DNA of 64,000 nucleotides, taken from assembly GCA_016906335.1 (NCBI GenBank), contig JADEYG010000002.1, positions 682,001 through 746,000 of the forward strand. Reading direction: 5' to 3'. Position numbers and translations under genes: made by a program. Shown piece by piece: positions 473 through 56,328 of this stretch. How positions within the stretch are numbered: position 1 is the first letter of the stretch; each line of letters opens with the position of its first letter. Below the pieces are notes generated by a model. That model was given only the letters and a program-made list of their open reading frames with translations, had not been told where the DNA came from and ran no database searches. Source of the DNA: Novakomyces olei (taxonomy: Eukaryota).

Positions 473-1501
473 TTATGCGTTCAGCTCAGCAAACTGCCCA
501 CGCAACAGCTTAATATCCTTATCCGTAGCTTTACAGCATCCACCAACCAGAAAATCTTTCCAAAAATTGCGGTTTTGCGCTTGTCTAACAACGGTGGCCA
601 GCTGCACTTCCCATGGTCTCGGATCACCCGGCGTTGCTTGTTCCCCCATTACTGCTGGCGCGTCCCAAGTTTTTGTAACTGGATTATACACCTGTCCGTT
701 TGTGCCGTCAGGGTAGAGGACAAGGCACGGTGGGACAGAGCCGGTTACAGAGACGGCGGCTCTTGCTGCTTCCTCGTACTCTGCAACAAGCCGCGCCAGT
801 TTGTGCACGGGCGCGCAATTAATGCCGATCCCCCACAACTCGGCCAATCCTTGGCCGGGGCATAATGCTGCTTCCACAGCCCGCGCAGCAATATTGCCGT
901 CCGGCAGCGAGCAGCCGCTGCCCGGGTACACGCAGGAAACCCACGCTCGGCAATTAAAGTGCCACAATGCCCGTCTTATCGCTCTCACTTCATCCAATCG
1001 CGGGACCGTCTCAAACGCCACGTATTTGATATGCCGCTGCACACTGGGCAGCTGGAAAAACAGCTTCAGGCGGCACAAGTGCCAATGGTAGAGCTGCTCT
1101 TCGTCGCTGTGGTCTGCGTCATAGGCGCCCGTGTACTCCTGTCCCGGAGACATGGCAGCGCCGTATGGGCCGAGGCTTAAGGCAACGCTGCTCCGGCCTG
1201 CCGCAGCGGCAACTGCCGTGTCAATTGCCGACTCCAGCAGAGGGATGACATCATCACCTCGTATACCGTGGGGGAACGCTGCCGTCCGTGTGCGGGCAAA
1301 CGTATCTGCCGAAGCCTGGTACGTCGCTGTCAGTACTATATCGGCCCCAGCCAGTACAAAATCGCGCTGGCAGTTTAGCAGCGCTGATGGCTTGTTCAGC
1401 AGTGTGCCTGTAGACCATAAGGCGCCCTGTGCGTCCCTGTAATCGACTCCATACTTGTCCTCAAGACTCGTACCCAGACCGCCGTCGAGTATTTGTATCA
1501 T
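473..1501 (-). CDS. Homocysteine S-methyltransferase (Mht1/Sam4/MmuM family), intronless
   Basis: N-terminal ILDGGLGTSLE, TATYQ, SLGPYGA, FET.P, GINC, YPDG and C-terminal GGCC zinc-ligand motifs. Confidence 0.93.
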   Translation of the reverse strand: MIQILDGGLGTSLEDKYGVDYRDAQGALWSTGTLLNKPSALLNCQRDFVLAGADIVLTATYQASADTFARTRTAAFPHGIRGDDVIPLLESAIDTAVAAAAGRSSVALSLGPYGAAMSPGQEYTGAYDADHSDEEQLYHWHLCRLKLFFQLPSVQRHIKYVAFETVPRLDEVRAIRRALWHFNCRAWVSCVYPGSGCSLPDGNIAARAVEAALCPGQGLAELWGIGINCAPVHKLARLVAEYEEAARAAVSVTGSVPPCLVLYPDGTNGQVYNPVTKTWDAPAVMGEQATPGDPRPWEVQLATVVRQAQNRNFWKDFLVGGCCKATDKDIKLLRGQFAELNA

Positions 1502-1561
1502 GACTAGAAATAATTCGGCGTCATTTGTGCGCTGTATATTACAAAAAATATAAACTCAATA

Positions 1562-1836
1562 TATAAAATTATAAAATTATAAAATTATAAAATTATAAAA
1601 TTATAAAATTATAAAATTATAAAACTATAAAATTATAAAATTATAAAATTATAAAATTATAAAATTATAAAATTATAAAATTATAAAATTATAAAATTAT
1701 AAAATTATAAAATTATAAAATTATAAAATTATAAAATTATAAAATTATAAAATTATAAAATTATAAAATTATAAAATTATAAAATTATAAAATTATAAAA
1801 TTATAAAATTATAAAATTATAAAATTATAAAATTAT
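1562..1836. repeat. 8-bp tandem repeat (TATAAAAT)n, about 34 copies
   Basis: Near-perfect array starting ~60 bp upstream of the HMT start codon; one variant unit. Confidence 0.97.
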
Positions 1837-2848
1837 CAATATCTATGAATGAGTGTTTGTTATCGGCCGTGTAGTAAAAAAAGGCTAGAATGTGTTGGGG
1901 TTAGTATTAGCCAAATCTTTGACAAAATCAATAAACAATATCGAGCACTGTTTTAATAATATAACTATTTTGTTGGTCAGACGCTGGACGCCGGCCGCGT
2001 GAATTCCAAACTGCGCCGACCGAAATCGGCCGCATTCCCGCACAAACCGAACATGTTTGAACTCGTTTCGAGCGCCTTTTCCCTAATTATTGTATTATTC
2101 TGTTGAGAGTGCGAGTTTGCGTCTGGACGCAGGTGCAAGAACTATTAGTGTGTGGCCGCGATGCAAACAATCTCACCGGCCAAACACCGCGTTAACGCAG
2201 GCAATTCGCATATACTTTATGGACAAGATACTGGAGAGATTGGTGGCGTGAGCCCAGCAATGAGGCTGCTACGCTGTATATATTTCGCAAGCGACTCAGC
2301 GTACGATACCCACGTTGTTGGGTCAGTGTTGCCAGAAAGCAGTCAATTAATGGAAGAGAACGAGTCTATGTTTGAGCAAAACGCCATCTCGAGGTGAGCA
2401 AAAGCGAAGCCTGTCAGTAATTGCTCAGCTCAGCGGGATTCCAAACCTGTTGGTCAAACTGGCTAGTGGAAAGTTGTAAAGTATGATGTCATTGGTCCAC
2501 TCAAGGCGTTGCAGATGCTACAAGAATTGTGTCTAGAAAACAACGGTGCTATATTTAAACGCGGTATGACGCTAATTGTAATTCTGGTTACCAAATTGCC
2601 TTGGGTTGCAAGGAAAATTGTACTAATACATCGGTGCTAGTTGCGACAGTGTGCTTGCTTTTGTGAATGTGCAACAAGGTTTTTGCAAGGTTCTTGGGTG
2701 AATTTTTGTTATCAATGGTCTGATAGCGTCTAATCCTGTGGCGATTCGCCAGATAGGCCATAAACTCATATACCGAGAAGTGGGACGATGCACAGGGCCG
2801 CAATATAATGTCAGTACGCACTAAGAATGCGGGCGTTAATGGACAAAC

Positions 2849-4040
2849 GCGTAACTTCCAACAGTAGCTCGTGCTTAATCAGCTGTCTGAATCTTCATCT
2901 CGGCGGTAATCCGGATTAAGATTGCTGGAAGGGCGCGGTTTTTGGCAAATCATTTTTCAGTATAGCCCGCCTGTCCTTTGGCGGATTATAGTGTCAAGTC
3001 TGCTAAGTCAAGCTCACGCTTTGAAGCGTTAGCTGTACATCCACTAGCCGAAATAATTCAGGATTAGGTAATTCACTTTAAATTGAGTTTTGATTATTTT
3101 CATCTCGGACTCTTTTAACAAAGTGCTCAATCCTGAGACTCATGGCTCTGGTAAGACTTTGTGCAGTAGCAAAATTATGATGCTATTTGCACCTGGCTGA
3201 TGGTTTTGAATGTTCAAAGCAGTTTATTATTGCGCTACAAAACTATGGAAATCTACATAAAAAAGACCTCAATACTCACCGGCACATCTCATGTGACACT
3301 GATGAATTAGATTCACCGCGTGTCAGTATAAGAGGTGTCGGTCAGAGGGATCTCTAAGGCACTGACGTATCATATGCGCCGGTGGACGTTGTGACTCTGT
3401 TATTGAACGAATACACACAACGGTGCAAATAGCAATCAGAACAATAAGAGTGGGTCACCAGCGGTAAGGTCCTGCTGTGAGCACTAGGCCAGCGGTGTCC
3501 CTCCAAGATCAACTTTCAAATCCATAGTGCTCCAACTTAATACAAACAAGATCAATGCTTGAGAGCACCCCCCAGCTGGCTATACAGCACAGAAGCTGAT
3601 GAAGCCCGATCTTGCCGTACAAGCGGAATGGAAATTAGGCCAATGCATGGAAAACCGTGTTCCAACGCAATACAACTGCCAAATGCCAAATCAACTAGCC
3701 CAAAGCCACCCCTCTATGCCTAGCGGAAATCTGCCCAGTCCTAAAGCCACAGTCGGCGATAGCGGTAGTCCTTGTCCGGACCTGAGACATAGAGGGGCCC
3801 CGAACGTGCCGTCTCCAAAGTCAATGCAGGGCCAAAAAATCACCGAAAAACCTGGAAAGACTCCAAAAAAAGGGAGGAAAGGCCACGCCGGTATCAAACA
3901 CCCATTACCGAGCGGAAAACAAGCCCTGAAACCACAAGTTTGAGCGGACAGAGTCCGTACCCCGGCTAAAAGGTGATTTACCAGGTAACAAACAAGTGCG
4001 GGAAATAGCGTCCGGACCTCGGGATCCCGAAGGATGGGGA
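2849..4040 (-). ncRNA. Candidate long structured non-coding RNA, identity unknown (telomerase-RNA-like architecture)
   Basis: No credible ORF. Upstream TATAAA and CCAAT on the minus strand. Many nested complementary segments in register, with G-U wobbles favouring the minus strand. Donor and branch point with no nearby acceptor at the 3' end. Ends are inferred. Confidence 0.5.
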
Positions 4041-4064
4041 ACTAGGGGAGCGAAACCACCTGGC

Positions 4065-4091
4065 TTTATACCCTGGACATGAGGCCATTGG
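4065..4091 (-). promoter_or_regulatory. TATA box and CCAAT box, minus strand
   Basis: TATAAA at 4070-4065 and CCAAT at 4091-4087, directly downstream (minus sense) of the 72-bp repeat array. Confidence 0.45.
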
Positions 4092-4101
4092 CAAATTAGC
4101 A

Positions 4102-4292
4102 ATCACAGAAACGTTCTAATGTCCTCAGTTGTGGGTACGAAAACGTGAAAAGGGCTCAAAAAAATGGGACTATGATCACAGAAACGTTCCAATTCCCTCA
4201 ACCTTGATAACGAAAACGGGTAAATTGCTCCGAAAACGGGACTATTATCACAGAAACGTTCTAATTCCCTCAATATTTATTCCGAAAACGTG
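4102..4292. repeat. Three diverged 72-73 bp direct repeats
   Basis: ATCACAGAAACGTTCYAAT..CCTCA starts at 4102, 4175 and 4247; each unit also carries CGAAAACG, and the first two carry GGGACTAT. Confidence 0.9.
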
Positions 4293-4889
4293 TAAAGCTG
4301 CATAAAAGAGTCGCGCAGATCCTGTTTTCGTGTTCATATTCATCTGTGCCGACGCGCGAAATTGAGGCAGATTCTGTTTTCATGACGATTAGCCTGTTTT
4401 GGGTTATATATCAATTTTGGGGCCGCATATGATTGGCCAGTCTAATGTATTAGGCACGTTTTCGTTCTCTGTGTTCCAAATAAGTAATAGCCCTAATCGC
4501 GTTTCCGTGATTTTAATTTCTGCTCGCTTTAATTCATATTAACAAGTAATACGCTCTAATAAAAATGTTGGTGATAGCTCAAATTTGATTTATTATTGGC
4601 ATCGAGACATATAAGTAATCCAAAAACATACGCAATATTTATGTAATTAAAAAGTTAAGGTACGGAGCCTGATGCATAAAGATACTTGAAATTAATAGAC
4701 ATGCTCGATAACGTTTGATAATTTACGAATCTCCACTGTTGCAAATTCGAGCACGCGCAAGCACGCGATTGCAGATTGCATGCGAACTAGAAAAGCTTTA
4801 GACTGAATTGATTGATTGATTGACTAATTGACTGACTGCTTTTTTCCTTTGGCCAAATAGCAACTGGTGAAGGTAAAATCTGCCATAGA

Positions 4890-6455
4890 ATGACAAAGGG
4901 TAGCACAGACTCCCGTGAGGGAAAACGCATTAAAATTGATAATGCAGTATTTGACGGGGATAAAGGTACCAAACCGGCCGATGGCAATCAACCAAAAAGA
5001 GCCAATGCCGGAATTAATCTCATTGAAGAGCAAGCAAGCGAGACCGGCAAGAGAGAAGGAAAGAATGAAGAAAGGCGCAGAAAAAAACTTATATTTAATG
5101 CATTTGCAATGACGACACCGAACCATTTATCGCCCGGATTGTGGAGGCATCGACGCAGTGATACGGGCAATTACAATACAATTGCGTATTGGACGCGTTT
5201 AGCAAAATTACTGGAACGCGGAAAATTCCACGCTCTTTTTCTAGCGGATACTTTAGGCCCTTATGACGTTTATCGCGGCCCACGTAACGTTAGACCCGCC
5301 GTGGAAGGCGGGACGCAGTTTCCCGTCAACGATCCTTCTCTCTCTATTTCTGCAATGGCGGCAGTGACGCAAAACTTGGGCTTTGGCGTGACTACTAGTA
5401 CAACGTACGAGCACCCTTACACTGTAGCACGTCGCTTTTCCACGCTCGATCATTTAACCAATGGCCGCATAATCATGAACATTGTGACCTCATACTTGGA
5501 AAGTGCAGCAAGGCTATACGGGTTGCCCGGGCAACTGGAGCATGACGCGCGTTACGCAAGAGCCGAAGAATTCATGCAGGTTTGCTATAAACTGTGGGAA
5601 TCTTCCTGGCGTGATGGTGCGGCCGTGCGAAATAGCGATAACGGCGTGTTTGCTGACGCGTCAAGTGTACGTGAAATTCACCACAAGGGAGAAAACTTTT
5701 GCGTCGATGGTGTCCATATTTGCGAGCCCTCGCCACAACGAACACCTCTTCTCTTCCAAGCGGGTACGAGTAGTGCTGGAAGTGCCTTTGGTGCAAGACA
5801 TAGCGAAATGATTTTCGTCGGTGGCCTTTCACCGGAAGCAATACGGAAATCTGTGGACGGCTTGCGGTCAAAAGTTGCCGCAGCCGGTCGAGATCCACGG
5901 CAATTGAAAATTGTAGCAAGTATAACGGTAGTTGTGGCGCCCATGGACGAGGAAGCCCACGCAGAATATAACGAACTGGCTTCGTATGCGAGTACCGAAG
6001 GTGCGTTGACTCTTTGCGGTGGCTGGACGGGGTACGATTTATCTCACTACAGCGACCACGAAGACTTTAGGTTTGTGGACTTACCGGCCATCCAGTCTAC
6101 CGTCCTCTATCTCGAGTCCAATGACCCCGGGAAAGAATGGAACAAGGAGCGAATTGCCAAGCATCTAATCTTGGGCGGCTTTAGCGGCAAGATCGTAGGC
6201 AGTCCGACCACAGTGGCGGACGAGCTGGAACGTTGGGCTGAAGTGGGTGATTTGGACGGGTTCAATTTTGCACATATTACGAGCCCAGGGAGTTTTGAAG
6301 ATCTCGTGGAGCTTGTGATTCCAGAAATGCAGAGACGAGGATCTTTCCACAAGGACTATGAGGCAAATGCTCATACCGCTAGAGGACTAGTATACGGCCA
6401 CGATCATTTAGCCACTGATCACCCTGGGTACCAGTACAAGTGGATGGACCATTAG
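4890..6455 (+). CDS. Luciferase-like FMN-dependent monooxygenase, NtaA/SnaA/DszA family, intronless
   Basis: LSPGLWRH, ERGKFHALFLAD, RRFSTLDHLTNGR..NIVTS, PSPQRTPLLFQAGTS, VGSPTTVADEL, DGFN motifs. Charged N-terminal extension; start codon uncertain. Confidence 0.93.
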   Translation: MTKGSTDSREGKRIKIDNAVFDGDKGTKPADGNQPKRANAGINLIEEQASETGKREGKNEERRRKKLIFNAFAMTTPNHLSPGLWRHRRSDTGNYNTIAYWTRLAKLLERGKFHALFLADTLGPYDVYRGPRNVRPAVEGGTQFPVNDPSLSISAMAAVTQNLGFGVTTSTTYEHPYTVARRFSTLDHLTNGRIIMNIVTSYLESAARLYGLPGQLEHDARYARAEEFMQVCYKLWESSWRDGAAVRNSDNGVFADASSVREIHHKGENFCVDGVHICEPSPQRTPLLFQAGTSSAGSAFGARHSEMIFVGGLSPEAIRKSVDGLRSKVAAAGRDPRQLKIVASITVVVAPMDEEAHAEYNELASYASTEGALTLCGGWTGYDLSHYSDHEDFRFVDLPAIQSTVLYLESNDPGKEWNKERIAKHLILGGFSGKIVGSPTTVADELERWAEVGDLDGFNFAHITSPGSFEDLVELVIPEMQRRGSFHKDYEANAHTARGLVYGHDHLATDHPGYQYKWMDH

Positions 6456-20243: not shown

Positions 20244-22922
20244 CTACATCAACTCCCTTGAGGTATAGACAAAGCCGCCACCAAACCAGTAACGCCATAA
20301 AGTACGGCCCCATCCAAATGTAAACAAGGACAAGACATCCCGAGGTCGTGTCCAAAGTACCAGAAGCCGTCCGATCAGCGAAACGGGCACGGGGGATATA
20401 GAGGCGGTTGATGAAAGAGACAGTGTAGAAGTGCTTGAGCCACCAGAAACTGTGCGTGAGCTGTTCCGATGACGGCTGAACGCAAAAGACGATACTCTCC
20501 GTACTTGCGGCCGTCTCTCTGTAAGCAGTTTATTACTTTGCTGCACTTGCAAAAGAGCATTCGGCCGGGTTAAAGGCTGCCGGCCAGAGAAACCGTCAGA
20601 TTTGTCTGCCACACCGCGCTTGTAGACAAGAATTTCCTGATCACTTGCATCGCTACTGCCTTTAACACTTGCTTTCTCCATATTTTTAGGGGCTTCCTTT
20701 TGTACTTTAAAACTGTGCGATGAAGCCTCACTTGTTTCTGCTAACGACTCGGTACTCGGGGTATGAATGCCCTTTGCAAGGACTGAATGCTGGTCGAATT
20801 GCTCGGCAATGTCGGTTTTAATCCGGCTCCCCTCTTCATCTTCACCGCTTACTTTTGCCTTACATTTCGGAGGGATTACGCCCGCGCAAGACTGGTCCAT
20901 TGGCGGCAGGCATCCATAGCAAATAACCGTACTCGTGCGTGTTATCCCGCAGTACCTTGAAACATCAGGCGTCGATCTGCCCGTCGGCCGAACAGGTCTC
21001 CTTCGCCGAATTGAAGTGCGAGTCAGTGGCGATGATTCTGATGATGGAGTCGACCGGGACGATAAAGCGCTTGATTGCGATTTGGAAATGGACGACTGGC
21101 TCCGGCCTGACCTCTGCCTACCCGTCGATGGAAGCAATGCTGTAGGAGATGTTCGAGTTGAAGACGAAGAAGAAGACGAAGAAGAAGAAGACAAAGAAAC
21201 AATAGACGAAAAAGAGGCAGAAGAAGAAGCGTTTGAAGGGGACGCTCGGCGTCTATATCGGCCTGAAGGAGACTTGTATTTGCGAGCAAAAGGCCGTGGC
21301 CGGGGCAAAGGGTTAGTAATCATAAAACTGCACGATCGACAGACTGTAGATCGGCAGGCACTGCAAGCTCTCGCGGGAAACCCCGAGTGGAAAGCGAGTC
21401 CACACAGGGAACAAGAGGAAGCAGAAGCATTATTGTCAGTAGTGCCAGCGAGCTGCAGTACATCAGCAGGAAATGTATCACGCACAGTCATTGTCCTCGG
21501 AGCCTCACATGGCGAACACGTCACATTTGACGTCTCTGTACACGAAGAATGGCAGAGCGGAGGAGTAGCGATATACTTGGCTTTTGATTCAACGGCATTA
21601 CCTTCATCACCCCTTTTAGTATCCGCAATCACATGCACAAAGTTTGTCAGGGGAGATGGTTCACGGAACGATCGAGGCAAGGGCGACATGTCCAGCATTA
21701 AATCCTGTTTTGTACGGGTCAGTCGTGGTGTCTTGGGAATGGAAAGAGAAGAGTTCCAATCGTTGGAAAGCTCTGGAATGCTGGGCTTTGGCCTAATACT
21801 ACGCAAAGGCATTATAGAAGCAGCATCGGTATTGGTCCCACAAAGTGTATCAAAGCTGGTTATATTAGCATCGTCGAGACCAAACAGCCGATCTCTTTCG
21901 GGGCTGGCCATCCGTGCTCTTGCCCTCAAATCGTACATGGACACTGCCTGACGAGTGCGGCCTTTACGAGCAGTCCGCTGTTGCATTTCTGCCTCGTTCA
22001 TGTGTGCTGCAATTACTGGTTCCTGTTCTAGTAGGGAAGCCAAATTAGACCGTCGAAAGCGCAAATTTTTTGTCTGTGACATTTTTAAAAATTGTTGCTG
22101 CTGCTGCCGATTGTCCATGTGAGGCTCCATTGTTGCTACACTACTCCCCTCGTCTAGTTGTGCCCTTTCCGGCAGAGGCAGTTTGTAACACTCGGGACGC
22201 CCTAGTTGCTTTGAGCCACTCCGTGGGCCATCAGCTTTTGTACTCTTTTGCTCCTGTAGACGACTGGCCAAGTTTGCTTCCAGCTGAGCGTGTCTTGGTC
22301 TCAGGAAGCTTCCAGTACCATGGGCCCCAGTATGAGGCCCTTTTCGCAACGCATTTGTCTTTAACCCGTCCTTGCTGCCAGTATCTAGGCCCAAAATTGC
22401 ATCAGCTGCGTCTAGACCCGTGTGCTTTTGCGGGGGCACATACTGCGGCACCCGTGAAGGAGGGGCAAGCCGAATATTGCCCTCACTGGCTTTGCGAGCA
22501 CGCAAAGGACCCGGTGAAAATCGGCCTTCTTTTGAATATCGGCCTTCTTCTCTACACACTGCCGTCGTATAAAAGGCATTGCTGCTCTGTAGTGGTGCCA
22601 TTACAGGCGGAGGTTCGCGCAGAATCGAATACGCACTTTCGCACTCAAAGTCACTGTCGTCAGATCCACTGCTGTACTCGCAAACGGACTCGTCGTTTTG
22701 ATTGCCGCCCTCCTCTTTGCCCAAAGGCGGTGAAAAATAAACGGGAATATCAGCGGCACACGTATGTGCCATTTTGCTCCCGTCGTGGCCGCCTAGATCT
22801 GCTGATAAATTGGCAAACTGCTTCTCGCAGGTGCCTTCTTGAGCGTGTCGAGGCCACTGGAAAATGCTCGTCTGGGTTGCCGGCCGGTGCAACCCAAGCG
22901 CGGCCATTGCCGGAAGAGACAT
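20244..22922 (-). CDS. Ser/Arg-rich, largely disordered protein with a split FYVE-like Cys8 zinc finger
   Basis: 892-aa uninterrupted ORF; CSLC..CSACRSTVCRSC..[long insert]..VICYGC; hydrophobic C-terminus. Confidence 0.75.
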   Translation of the reverse strand: MSLPAMAALGLHRPATQTSIFQWPRHAQEGTCEKQFANLSADLGGHDGSKMAHTCAADIPVYFSPPLGKEEGGNQNDESVCEYSSGSDDSDFECESAYSILREPPPVMAPLQSSNAFYTTAVCREEGRYSKEGRFSPGPLRARKASEGNIRLAPPSRVPQYVPPQKHTGLDAADAILGLDTGSKDGLKTNALRKGPHTGAHGTGSFLRPRHAQLEANLASRLQEQKSTKADGPRSGSKQLGRPECYKLPLPERAQLDEGSSVATMEPHMDNRQQQQQFLKMSQTKNLRFRRSNLASLLEQEPVIAAHMNEAEMQQRTARKGRTRQAVSMYDLRARARMASPERDRLFGLDDANITSFDTLCGTNTDAASIMPLRSIRPKPSIPELSNDWNSSLSIPKTPRLTRTKQDLMLDMSPLPRSFREPSPLTNFVHVIADTKRGDEGNAVESKAKYIATPPLCHSSCTETSNVTCSPCEAPRTMTVRDTFPADVLQLAGTTDNNASASSCSLCGLAFHSGFPARACSACRSTVCRSCSFMITNPLPRPRPFARKYKSPSGRYRRRASPSNASSSASFSSIVSLSSSSSSSSSSSTRTSPTALLPSTGRQRSGRSQSSISKSQSSALSSRSTPSSESSPLTRTSIRRRRPVRPTGRSTPDVSRYCGITRTSTVICYGCLPPMDQSCAGVIPPKCKAKVSGEDEEGSRIKTDIAEQFDQHSVLAKGIHTPSTESLAETSEASSHSFKVQKEAPKNMEKASVKGSSDASDQEILVYKRGVADKSDGFSGRQPLTRPNALLQVQQSNKLLTERRPQVRRVSSFAFSRHRNSSRTVSGGSSTSTLSLSSTASISPVPVSLIGRLLVLWTRPRDVLSLFTFGWGRTLWRYWFGGGFVYTSRELM

Positions 22923-23076
22923 CAGATCATATCGCGCTCTTCTGAGCCAATTCCCGCGAGTTTAGGCGCTCATTCGAACAAGTGCAATTTACAGATTGCC
23001 TGCATATACGGTTGTTGTTTATTTGTAAACAAGAGCGTGGTAGCTAGTCTATATACGGCTATAAGAAAAGCAGTAC

Positions 23077-54675: not shown

Positions 54676-56328
54676 TGTGCAATCAGATAACGATTCCTAT
54701 AGCGCAAGGTCCGCAGGCGGTGTGATACTTGCAAATGCTGGCAAGTATCCAAACTGGGCCGCTCGCCGTCACTGCCAGCGGATCAGAGTATGGAAACACT
54801 GGAGCCGATCGTAATCAACGACTCGGAAAACTTTTGCTGTCTCGGCCTGATGAAAAGAGCAGACGCAACAGACGCACGCGCCAATGGGAAACCGATCAAT
54901 TTTTTGGTTCTCGAGCAGTGGCAATGCTTAGCGTGGTTCCATTGCACTGTGCGATTAGCACTGATCTCTTTCACGATACCGTGAACGAACGCAACGCGCA
55001 CGCCTCAACGCCGAAAACAAAAATATAATCGATCAGATACGTACGTAAGAGTCGAGGGTTATATAATAATTTTTTCCTGTTCCTATTATATATGGAAAAG
55101 CGCGCTCGGCCTACCATGCGCCGTACATCGGTGTTATAATGCCCGACCCCGAGCTGCGCAAGTAATGTATTGCGAACGTTTATTCTACACATAAACTAGT
55201 AGCTAGATATATACAATAGTTTAGGGTTATGGTTAGTTATGGTTAGTTATGGTTAGCGTCTTGAAAACCCTAGCCAGCCCATCCAATACAAATACTTCAA
55301 CAAAAGCACTTCCTGCAAGAGTTGAAGGACGTATAGGTAAGGCGGAAAATCTACAGAGAGCAAAAGGTAGAAAACCAACGGCAAAGTAGCTTTACTGTGG
55401 AGCTTACTGTGGAGCTCGTGTGACTGTATTGCCGAGCGAGTATATATATGATAGGACCCCTATCATACAATCTTAATATAGATTATCATAATCTAAAGTT
55501 TGGATTACTCGCTCGATGCTCCTCACGACTGAAGCTATACTAGCGTTTCCTCCCTACAGACATCCTGTTACTCCTTTGGGATTGCAATGCCTTGGAGCCT
55601 TTGACAAAATGCCCTTGTAAAGCTGGCATTCAAGGTTCATCCTTTGCCTCGTTCGTAGACTATATAAACAGGGAATGTCCTTCAAAAGAACTGTATAATT
55701 GAATAGACTTGTTTTATCCTACCAACCCATTATCCGTGCTCAAGAAAATAAGCAGTGGGATCGAGGAACCACGAATTAATTTAATTATTAAATAATTAAC
55801 TTGACGCTAAACACATACAATAATAGACTAAACAAAAAGTGTGCAGTGCAGTATTGTGACAGAATCCAGTTTGTAATTTATTTAATAAATACTCGTTAAT
55901 ACACGTACCAATGCTCCCCATATTGCATTTAGCATTTGGACCCGTTTGGTCGGACGTATGAACCAATTTTCCACAGCCTTTCCTCGCTGGTGACAATTGC
56001 GAGGCACGTTTTGCACGTGCCAGACACTGAAAAAAATAAAGGCGGTTGCTCTATATAGCGTTGAACGCGTAAGACTTGGCCTCTTTTTGTTCACCCGCGT
56101 TTTTATTGTCAAGTGGCATTTCAATACTGCTCCTGCGCGAGTTCTGCCTCAGCACTGCCGCACAATAAAGTCCAAACTGTTCGCACTCATACCGTTCGCC
56201 CATCCGCTGTGAAGTAGCGGCTCCCCAACGCTTTTTTAGTGGTTGGTGTGCTGGGTAAACTTTATTCTACAACTTGACCTTATACAAAACATTTTGCTAA
56301 TCTGAACCAGGAGCGTTCAGAGAGAACT

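Follow-up and report, generated by a model that had tools for sequence, protein, structure and literature searches.

Intron-like signals in a non-coding gap of a Novakomyces olei contig and their possible readings

In a 64,000-nucleotide (nt) stretch of the fungus Novakomyces olei (contig JADEYG010000002.1 of assembly GCA_016906335.1, forward-strand positions 682,001 to 746,000; hereafter the window, numbered from its first letter), a donor-like GTTTGT at 2848 is followed on the minus strand by a branch-like TACTGAC with its A at 2811. What does such a pair of motifs do in a gap between two genes? An initial annotation proposed that this 2848/2811 unit marks the 3' end of a stable RNA, cut after 2849 by a splicing reaction that stops at its first step, as in the telomerase RNA TER1 of Schizosaccharomyces pombe. 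The part of the proposal that stands is the resemblance of the motifs to real spliceosome signals, whereas a stable TER1-like 3' end at 2849 is unsupported. The unit belongs to a same-strand cluster of donor-plus-branch units, absent from the initial annotation, which exceeds chance. The 2848 donor and the 2811 branch may be the intron signals of a spliced non-coding minus-strand transcript running past 2849, a reading that we hold to be plausible and a little short of probable.

A same-strand cluster of intron-like units

The coordinates of the features are collected in Table 1. Reading of the minus strand and a script gave the same positions as the initial annotation for the donor, the branch A, the AG at 46 nt and the YAG at 75 nt. 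The donor hexamer is indeed shared with a reference intron of the window, as GTTTGT also opens the cdc27 intron at 61432. This intron (61432-61479, 48 nt) bridges open reading frames (ORFs) in a gene that carries the Pfam family CDC27, and it has the same GTTTGT donor and the same TACTGAC branch as the 2848/2811 unit, with a donor-branch spacing of 35 nt as against 37 nt. The two differ in the acceptor, which lies 12 nt past the branch in the cdc27 intron but 46 nt (GAG) or 75 nt (CAG) past it in the 2848/2811 unit, and in the flanks, which are coding in the former and non-coding in the latter.

The ORF-bridging introns of the window, which were inferred from reading frames and not from RNA, form 20 clusters, half of which (10/20) contain a CTRAY motif. 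The distance from CTRAY to the acceptor is 7-15 nt in six of these ten introns and 27-33 nt in three, so the initial statement that acceptors sit near the branch is roughly right, with a minority of more distant ones. Compared with these introns, the 2848/2811 unit has the first half of a short intron of the window, namely a donor of the GTNNGT type and, 30-45 nt further on, a CTRAY branch, but not the second half, in which a YAG follows the branch after about 6-15 nt, rarely about 33 nt; its first YAG comes after 75 nt. The long branch-to-acceptor distance is real. That the 2848 donor and the 2811 branch look like real spliceosome signals is supported, since the donor type and the 37-nt spacing match the cdc27 intron (35 nt) and since the unit has neighbours of the same kind on the same strand.

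Over both strands of the window, TACTRAC is present 17 times (shuffled sequences: 10.99 +/- 2.96; 17 reached in 4 of 100), and four of these motifs lie on the minus strand in 1900-3330, with their A at 3323, 2811, 2414 and 1901. The plus strand has no TACTRAC over this stretch. Three of the four read TACTGACA and have a donor-like GT 32-43 nt upstream. The donor-branch spacings in the cluster (43, 37, 32 and 35 nt) match the 35 nt of the cdc27 intron, and the two units at 2047-1965 and 1936-1885 have canonical intron geometry in full. In local Markov simulations of a 1571-nt stretch, at least four TACTRAC were obtained in 5 of 20000 runs, and at least three TACTRAC with GTNNG 20-55 nt upstream in none of 20000. 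A scan statistic over the whole window reached the four-motif value in 4 of 1000 simulated windows and the donor-paired value in 1 of 1000, figures that are somewhat optimistic because the scan widths were set after the cluster had been seen, which tempers the case for real introns. The same-strand clustering of donor-plus-branch units nevertheless exceeds chance.

Tandem duplication was considered as the origin of the cluster on account of TACTRAC spacings of 512 and 513 nt. It was rejected: a blastn comparison of 3500-2620 with 2600-1840 yielded no match with an E-value under 0.74, and a repeat search found no long family. On the minus strand, the GTCAGT donor of the unit at 3366 is the reverse complement of the ACTGAC in its branch (3323), and 3322-3366 thus also reads as an inverted repeat, with a donor plus a branch on both strands; no Sm site precedes this GTCAGT.

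Table 1. Features of the non-coding gap and its borders (positions in the window; spacings in nt)
Feature	Position	Strand	Donor to branch A	Branch A to first usable YAG	Remarks
GTTTGT, donor-like	2843..2848	-	37	75	Donor of the 2848/2811 unit; putative cut site after 2849; read off the minus strand and by script
TACTGAC, branch-like	2810..2816	-			A at 2811, 37 nt after the GTTTGT donor; strand reading and script
GAG	2765..2767	-			First AG past the branch, 46 nt from the A at 2811; strand reading and script
CAG	2736..2738	-			First YAG past the branch, 75 nt from the A at 2811; strand reading and script
Local branched hairpin domain, 90 nt	2848..2937	-			Closing helix 2937-2918/2866-2848 ends at the donor G
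Upstream intron-like unit, 68 nt	3299..3366	-	43	24	GTCAGT 3366-3361 (donor 3366), TACTGAC 3328-3322 (A 3323), CAG 3301-3299
Downstream intron-like unit	2366..2446	-	32	48	AG/GTTTGG with GTTTGG 2446-2441 (donor 2446), TACTGAC 2419-2413 (A 2414), TAG 2368-2366
Complete intron-like unit, 83 nt	1965..2047	-			GTTTGT 2047, GTCTGAC (A 1977), TAG ending 1965, 12 nt from the A
Complete intron-like unit, 52 nt	1885..1936	-			GTTTAT 1936, TACTAAC 1906-1900 (A 1901), TAG ending 1885, 16 nt from the A
GTGAGT, consensus-type donor	3274..3279	-			Context CCG/GTGAGTAT; possible branches 3064 or 3029, acceptors ending 3044 or 3003
AUUUUUUG, Sm-like site	3833..3840	-			Only strong site of its kind in the region; about 1 kb before the 2848 donor
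TATAAAG	4064..4070	-			Possible promoter element; strand reading, promoter function inferred
Gap of 3.3 kb	1556..4835	.			No ORF of at least 130 amino acids; largest such gap of the window
Homocysteine S-methyltransferase gene	473-1501	-			Borders the gap; downstream of the units and in the same direction
Luciferase-like monooxygenase gene	4890-6455	+			Borders the gap; divergent from the minus-strand units

The cluster suggests the following course of events. An RNA polymerase II transcript without coding capacity would cross the gap on the minus strand, starting possibly downstream of TATAAAG and running towards the S-methyltransferase gene, and it would carry several short introns, one of which would be that of 2848/2811. 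The spliceosome would recognise the 2848 donor and the 2811 branch in the same way as those of the near-identical cdc27 intron and would then use a distant acceptor, either the CAG at 2736 or the GAG at 2765, because no reading frame keeps the acceptor near the branch. The case for transcription, for its strand, for splicing and for completion of the second step comes from motif statistics, from which we infer them. The stretch resembles the multi-intron snoRNA host genes of the UHG-like type with only short ORFs that are described for Neurospora crassa in the sections of PMC2780460 at hand: there are several putative introns on one strand, canonical splice signals and short ORFs (58 amino acids (aa) at most here, 159-267 bp there). 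Both the cluster statistics and the 58-aa longest ORF fit such a gene, with splicing being predicted from the motifs. Unlike in those hosts, no snoRNA was detected in introns or exons by Rfam or by a box C/D scan, and most of the units (52-113 nt) are too short to contain one. If the units are real introns, they would form part of a non-coding gene with a spliced transcript that is not annotated so far. It would lie upstream of a gene of the methionine cycle and be an ordinary object, yet one worth annotating; at present it is a lead for RNA mapping.

Several points weigh against a spliced transcript. (i) In the three units that read TACTGACA, the first YAG follows the branch after 24, 75 and 48 nt, as against 7-15 nt in the six CTRAY introns with a close acceptor, so that efficient complete splicing is doubtful. 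(ii) Complete canonical intron patterns are only weakly raised, with four (two of them with a common donor and acceptor) against about 0.95 in simulated sequence, and at least four in 97 of 5000 simulations. (iii) The 8-mer common to the three TACTGAC motifs could be a site acting at the level of DNA. (iv) An intron-poor genome seldom has non-coding genes with several introns other than snoRNA hosts, and no snoRNA was found here.

Competing explanations

The best surviving competitor is that the donor, the branch and the distant AG arose by chance and have no function, in intergenic DNA that is not transcribed or not spliced, which we regard as possible but unlikely. Taken singly, a donor-branch pair is no more than chance would give and is not significant: GTNNG stands 20-55 nt upstream of TACTRAC nine times in the window, both strands counted, whereas 100 Markov simulations gave 3.36 on average and never more than 8. 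Two of the nine pairs (21485/21436 and 21344/21313) are inside an uninterrupted 905-aa ORF at 20244-22961 on the minus strand, which has no Pfam family and whose two chance pairs serve as internal controls, and a third (41019/41062) is antisense to a coding exon, that of the Sec24 ORF. The first YAG comes 75, 50 and 67 nt past the branch in these three pairs; a long first-YAG distance is therefore the look of a non-selected pair and not a TER1-like design per se. The mean in unselected sequence is about 32 nt, and 75 nt is unremarkable. The fold z-scores of the proposed RNA body, likewise unremarkable, and the lack of an Rfam match also agree with chance. What chance accounts for poorly is the company that the pair keeps, since the same-strand cluster with donors appears in only 1-4 of 1000 whole-window simulations and 0-5 of 20000 local ones, with the plus strand there being free of TACTRAC.

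Another possibility takes the motifs as functional and the missing acceptors at face value. The units at 3366, 2848 and 2446, without a nearby acceptor, would be half-introns at which only the first step takes place, cutting a non-coding or read-through transcript. The outcome would be decay of the transcript, or its ending before the S-methyltransferase promoter, that is, spliceosome-mediated decay or discard and not the maturation of a stable RNA. We consider this quite improbable. It would account for the TACTGACA common to the three units and for first-YAG distances well above the 7-15 nt of the close-acceptor introns, but these distances fit unselected sequence equally. Spliceosomal cleavage leading to decay has reportedly been found for the BDF2 mRNA of budding yeast, and a similar process would account for a donor and a branch that lack a productive acceptor, by making them a device for cutting and destabilising a transcript; BDF2 is, however, a protein-coding mRNA for which the effect was shown by experiment, and here it would be pure inference. 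The branch is not ideal for such a role either, as the G at position 5 of TACTGAC pairs with U2 by a G-U wobble and leaves less than full complementarity. The donor of the 3366 unit would be better suited, being the GTCAGT that blocks the second step in the TER1 of S. cryophilus and S. octosporus, and in S. pombe a strong branch combined with a long branch-to-acceptor distance triggers discard (PMC4299874, in the sections at hand). In its more specific form, in which the array of three half-introns with TACTGACA provides cleavage sites that define 3' ends, 2849 among them, or that destroy read-through to the S-methyltransferase gene, the proposal is likewise improbable. If true, a first-step stop at this locus would be a rare example of cleavage by the spliceosome in an RNA other than telomerase RNA, a question that is still open in the field; the use of the discard pathway beyond telomerase is raised in the discussion of PMC4299874.

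The reading of the initial annotation, a stable telomerase-RNA-like non-coding RNA of about 1.2 kb whose mature 3' end is formed at 2849 by first-step-only splicing, appears very unlikely. The mechanism itself is known, since spliceosomal 3'-end cleavage is established for the TER1 of S. pombe, S. cryophilus and S. octosporus and for Aspergillus TER, according to the sections of PMC4299874 on these RNAs. A donor, a branch and an acceptor are present just downstream of 2849 (GTTTGT 2848, TACTGAC with its A at 2811, CAG 2736), the donor and the branch are of good quality, the same strand has TATAAAG about 1.2 kb further upstream and the stretch is non-coding. With fungal telomerase RNA 3' ends the site shares the donor, the near-consensus branch and an unusually long branch-to-acceptor distance on a non-coding strand; the donor of the sister unit at 3366, GTCAGT, is of the type found in the S. 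cryophilus and S. octosporus genes. The published blocks to the second step are (i) a branch perfectly complementary to U2 together with a long branch-to-acceptor distance, (ii) a GUCAGU donor or (iii) an AUA(A/C)GU donor (PMC4299874, same sections). At 2848 the 75-nt distance is present, but the branch is UACUGAC and not UACUAAC, and the donor GUUUGU is neither GUCAGU nor AUAAGU.

The main difference from the known telomerase RNAs concerns the Sm site, which overlaps the donor in S. pombe TER1 and is found 14 or 27 nt ahead of it in the TER1 of S. cryophilus and S. octosporus (PMC4299874, same sections). The 110 nt that precede 2848 contain no Sm-like site, in agreement with the caveat attached to the initial annotation. 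A(U)4-7G occurs on the minus strand of the region only at 3840, 3175 and 1928, and the nearest run of at least three U upstream of 2848 is at 2949. The site is not filed as a TER1-type end because the defining Sm feature was looked for there and is lacking. Two other structured RNAs, a U5-like loop (a CCUUUUA hairpin near 3975) and an snRNA-like combination of Sm site and 3' hairpin near 3840, were weighed by eye and dropped, with no support from Rfam.

The initial annotation had also let 2859-2849 pair with 3888-3876, so that the RNA would be closed exactly at the cut. This helix can form (-11.2 kcal/mol) but is ordinary and is out-competed by a local one. A partner at least as good was available for 62% of 300 shuffled 11-mers and for 48% of the native 11-mers of the RNA body, and forcing the long-range helix costs 13.2 kcal/mol relative to the minimum-energy fold. 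The local helix 2937-2918/2866-2848 reaches -19.0 kcal/mol and the extended long-range one -14.0, and folds of 1197 nt and of 150 nt both pair the 2849 end locally with 2937-2918. The helix proposed to close the RNA does not exceed chance. The local hairpin domain shows a modest excess of structure in the 150-nt fold (z -2.36; 3 of 200 shuffles as good). The proposed RNA body shows none: z was at or below -2 in 2 of 30 minus-strand windows, and nine windows over its 5' 650 nt (4150-3401, minus strand) gave z from -1.20 to +1.99, with no excess folding.

Furthermore, a scan of 4045-2849 on the minus strand for a TTAGGG-type template (9-mers with at most one mismatch; this repeat type may not be that of the host) returned only the CCTAATCCT stretch at 3068; in the whole of the sequence scanned, 4-5 matches are expected by chance. 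A single C-rich direct-repeat candidate is found at 4049, beside the TATA box. Elsewhere in the window, a perfect (GTTATGGTTA) array of 3.1 copies (55226-55256, intergenic) consists of GGTTAT repeats and is superficially like the telomeres of fission yeast; no link between this array and a telomerase template was found.

The site at 2849 is also unlike a telomerase RNA end in that several units stand in series and not one at the terminus, that its branch has G at position 5 and that neither a template nor any further feature of a telomerase RNA could be demonstrated. Given the sister units upstream (3366/3323) and downstream (2446/2414, 2047/1977 and 1936/1901), a transcript would more likely continue past 2849 than end there. 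Taken together with the missing Sm site and the chance-level helix, these units on both sides mean that the proposed 3' end of a stable TER1-like RNA is not borne out. First-step-only cleavage at 2848 is unsupported rather than refuted.

There is an even slimmer chance that TACTGACA (plus strand TGTCAGTA) is a repeated protein-binding site in DNA and that the GT motifs upstream of it are coincidental. Three identical 8-mers within 920 nt, in a gap that has other repeated motifs and lies between two possible sulfur or methionine genes, would suit such a role. However, the copies all have one orientation and are 400-510 nt apart, unlike a typical cluster of sites, we know of no factor for this motif, and the donors, which accompany all three copies at intron-like spacing (0 of 20000 simulations), would be left unexplained.

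The least credible explanation, and one rejected for now, takes the CUGA of TACTGAC as a D box and the stretch as a cluster or host gene of box C/D snoRNAs, since a fungal non-coding gene with several introns is usually a snoRNA host (PMC2780460, in the sections at hand): it could point to GAGATGA motifs at 3102 and 2900 and to Rfam C/D matches at 3055-3111 on the minus strand (SNORD44, E 1.2; snoU2_19, E 2.9), but these E-values are at chance level, and a scan of the minus strand of 1880-4100 (C box with at most one mismatch, D box 45-135 nt further on, adjacent stem of at least 4 bp; H/ACA not scanned separately) gave no C/D candidate. The similarity between the two GAGATGA units extends to a 10-mer at most, as expected by chance. 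The segment at 3055-3111 itself lies within the putative intron that starts at the GTGAGT of 3279, and it has a mismatched C box and no adjacent terminal stem.

The non-coding gap and its surroundings

The window is fungal, with CCR4, Sec24, an aldehyde dehydrogenase, a PPR protein and the DNA polymerase delta subunit Cdc27 among its genes, which have long exons and few, short introns. In searches of a protein collection, the CCR4-like ORF had matches in Basidiomycota, Schizosaccharomyces and early-diverging fungi at no more than 50% identity, and the aldehyde dehydrogenase matched diverse Pezizomycotina at 61-67%. No close relative of this fungus was found in the collection searched (CCR4 at most 50%, aldehyde dehydrogenase at most 67%).

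The gap has no detectable coding capacity. Indeed, (i) none of 10 ORFs searched matches a Pfam family at the curated cut-off, (ii) neither strand shows sustained codon bias, the minus-strand maximum being 7.7 at 2010 (coding mean 8.7), and (iii) 324 splice combinations of the listed introns gave a longest ORF of 58 aa. Isolated windows on the plus strand look coding-like (9.0 at 2981, 8.0 at 2471 and at 3191), with no ORF behind them. The plus-strand 114-aa ORF at 3599-3943 was discarded as a gene, as it has no homologue and the one word-sharing candidate failed to score. The pattern at 3142-3357 on the plus strand is like that of a small fungal gene, with ATG GCT CTG, a GTAAGA donor, a CTGAT branch, a CAG at 3222 and a 44-codon ORF that has one window of 8.0. 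It was also set aside as a small gene: its five matches with E of at most 0.001 are all proteins of 552-2974 aa, and no small-protein homologue was found. These matches look like repeat noise, as four of the five align over several separate stretches, while none is given for the fifth.

No Rfam 15 model (4227 models) matched at its gathering score anywhere in the window. Four sub-scans with E-values up to 10 returned seven distinct weak rows (E 0.96-7.3, chance level), namely the two C/D families at 3055-3111 on the minus strand and five unrelated families on the plus strand (DUF2693, osmY, Antizyme_FSE, DnaX and H19_2).

The genes on either side of the gap may both belong to sulfur or methionine metabolism, to judge from their family names. 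For the luciferase-like monooxygenase, the closest relatives in a single metagenome scan had 45% identity; the scan returned 13 loci at 32-45% identity, too distant to serve as orthologous loci.

Repeats are found at both ends of the gap. A 72-nt tandem repeat (2.7 copies, 4102-4297) lies directly upstream of the minus-strand TATAAAG, and a CACGTTTTCG-like motif was counted by eye about six times, in both orientations, in 4130-4465 (4315-4465 included). The repeats of 4102-4465 look like a shared upstream regulatory array, which might serve the divergent monooxygenase gene, the putative minus-strand transcript or both. At the other end, a near-perfect (TATAAAAT) microsatellite at 1562-1836 (34 copies, 99% matches) ends about 60 nt before the ATG of the S-methyltransferase gene. 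AT-rich micro- and minisatellites are common in the intergenic regions of the window.

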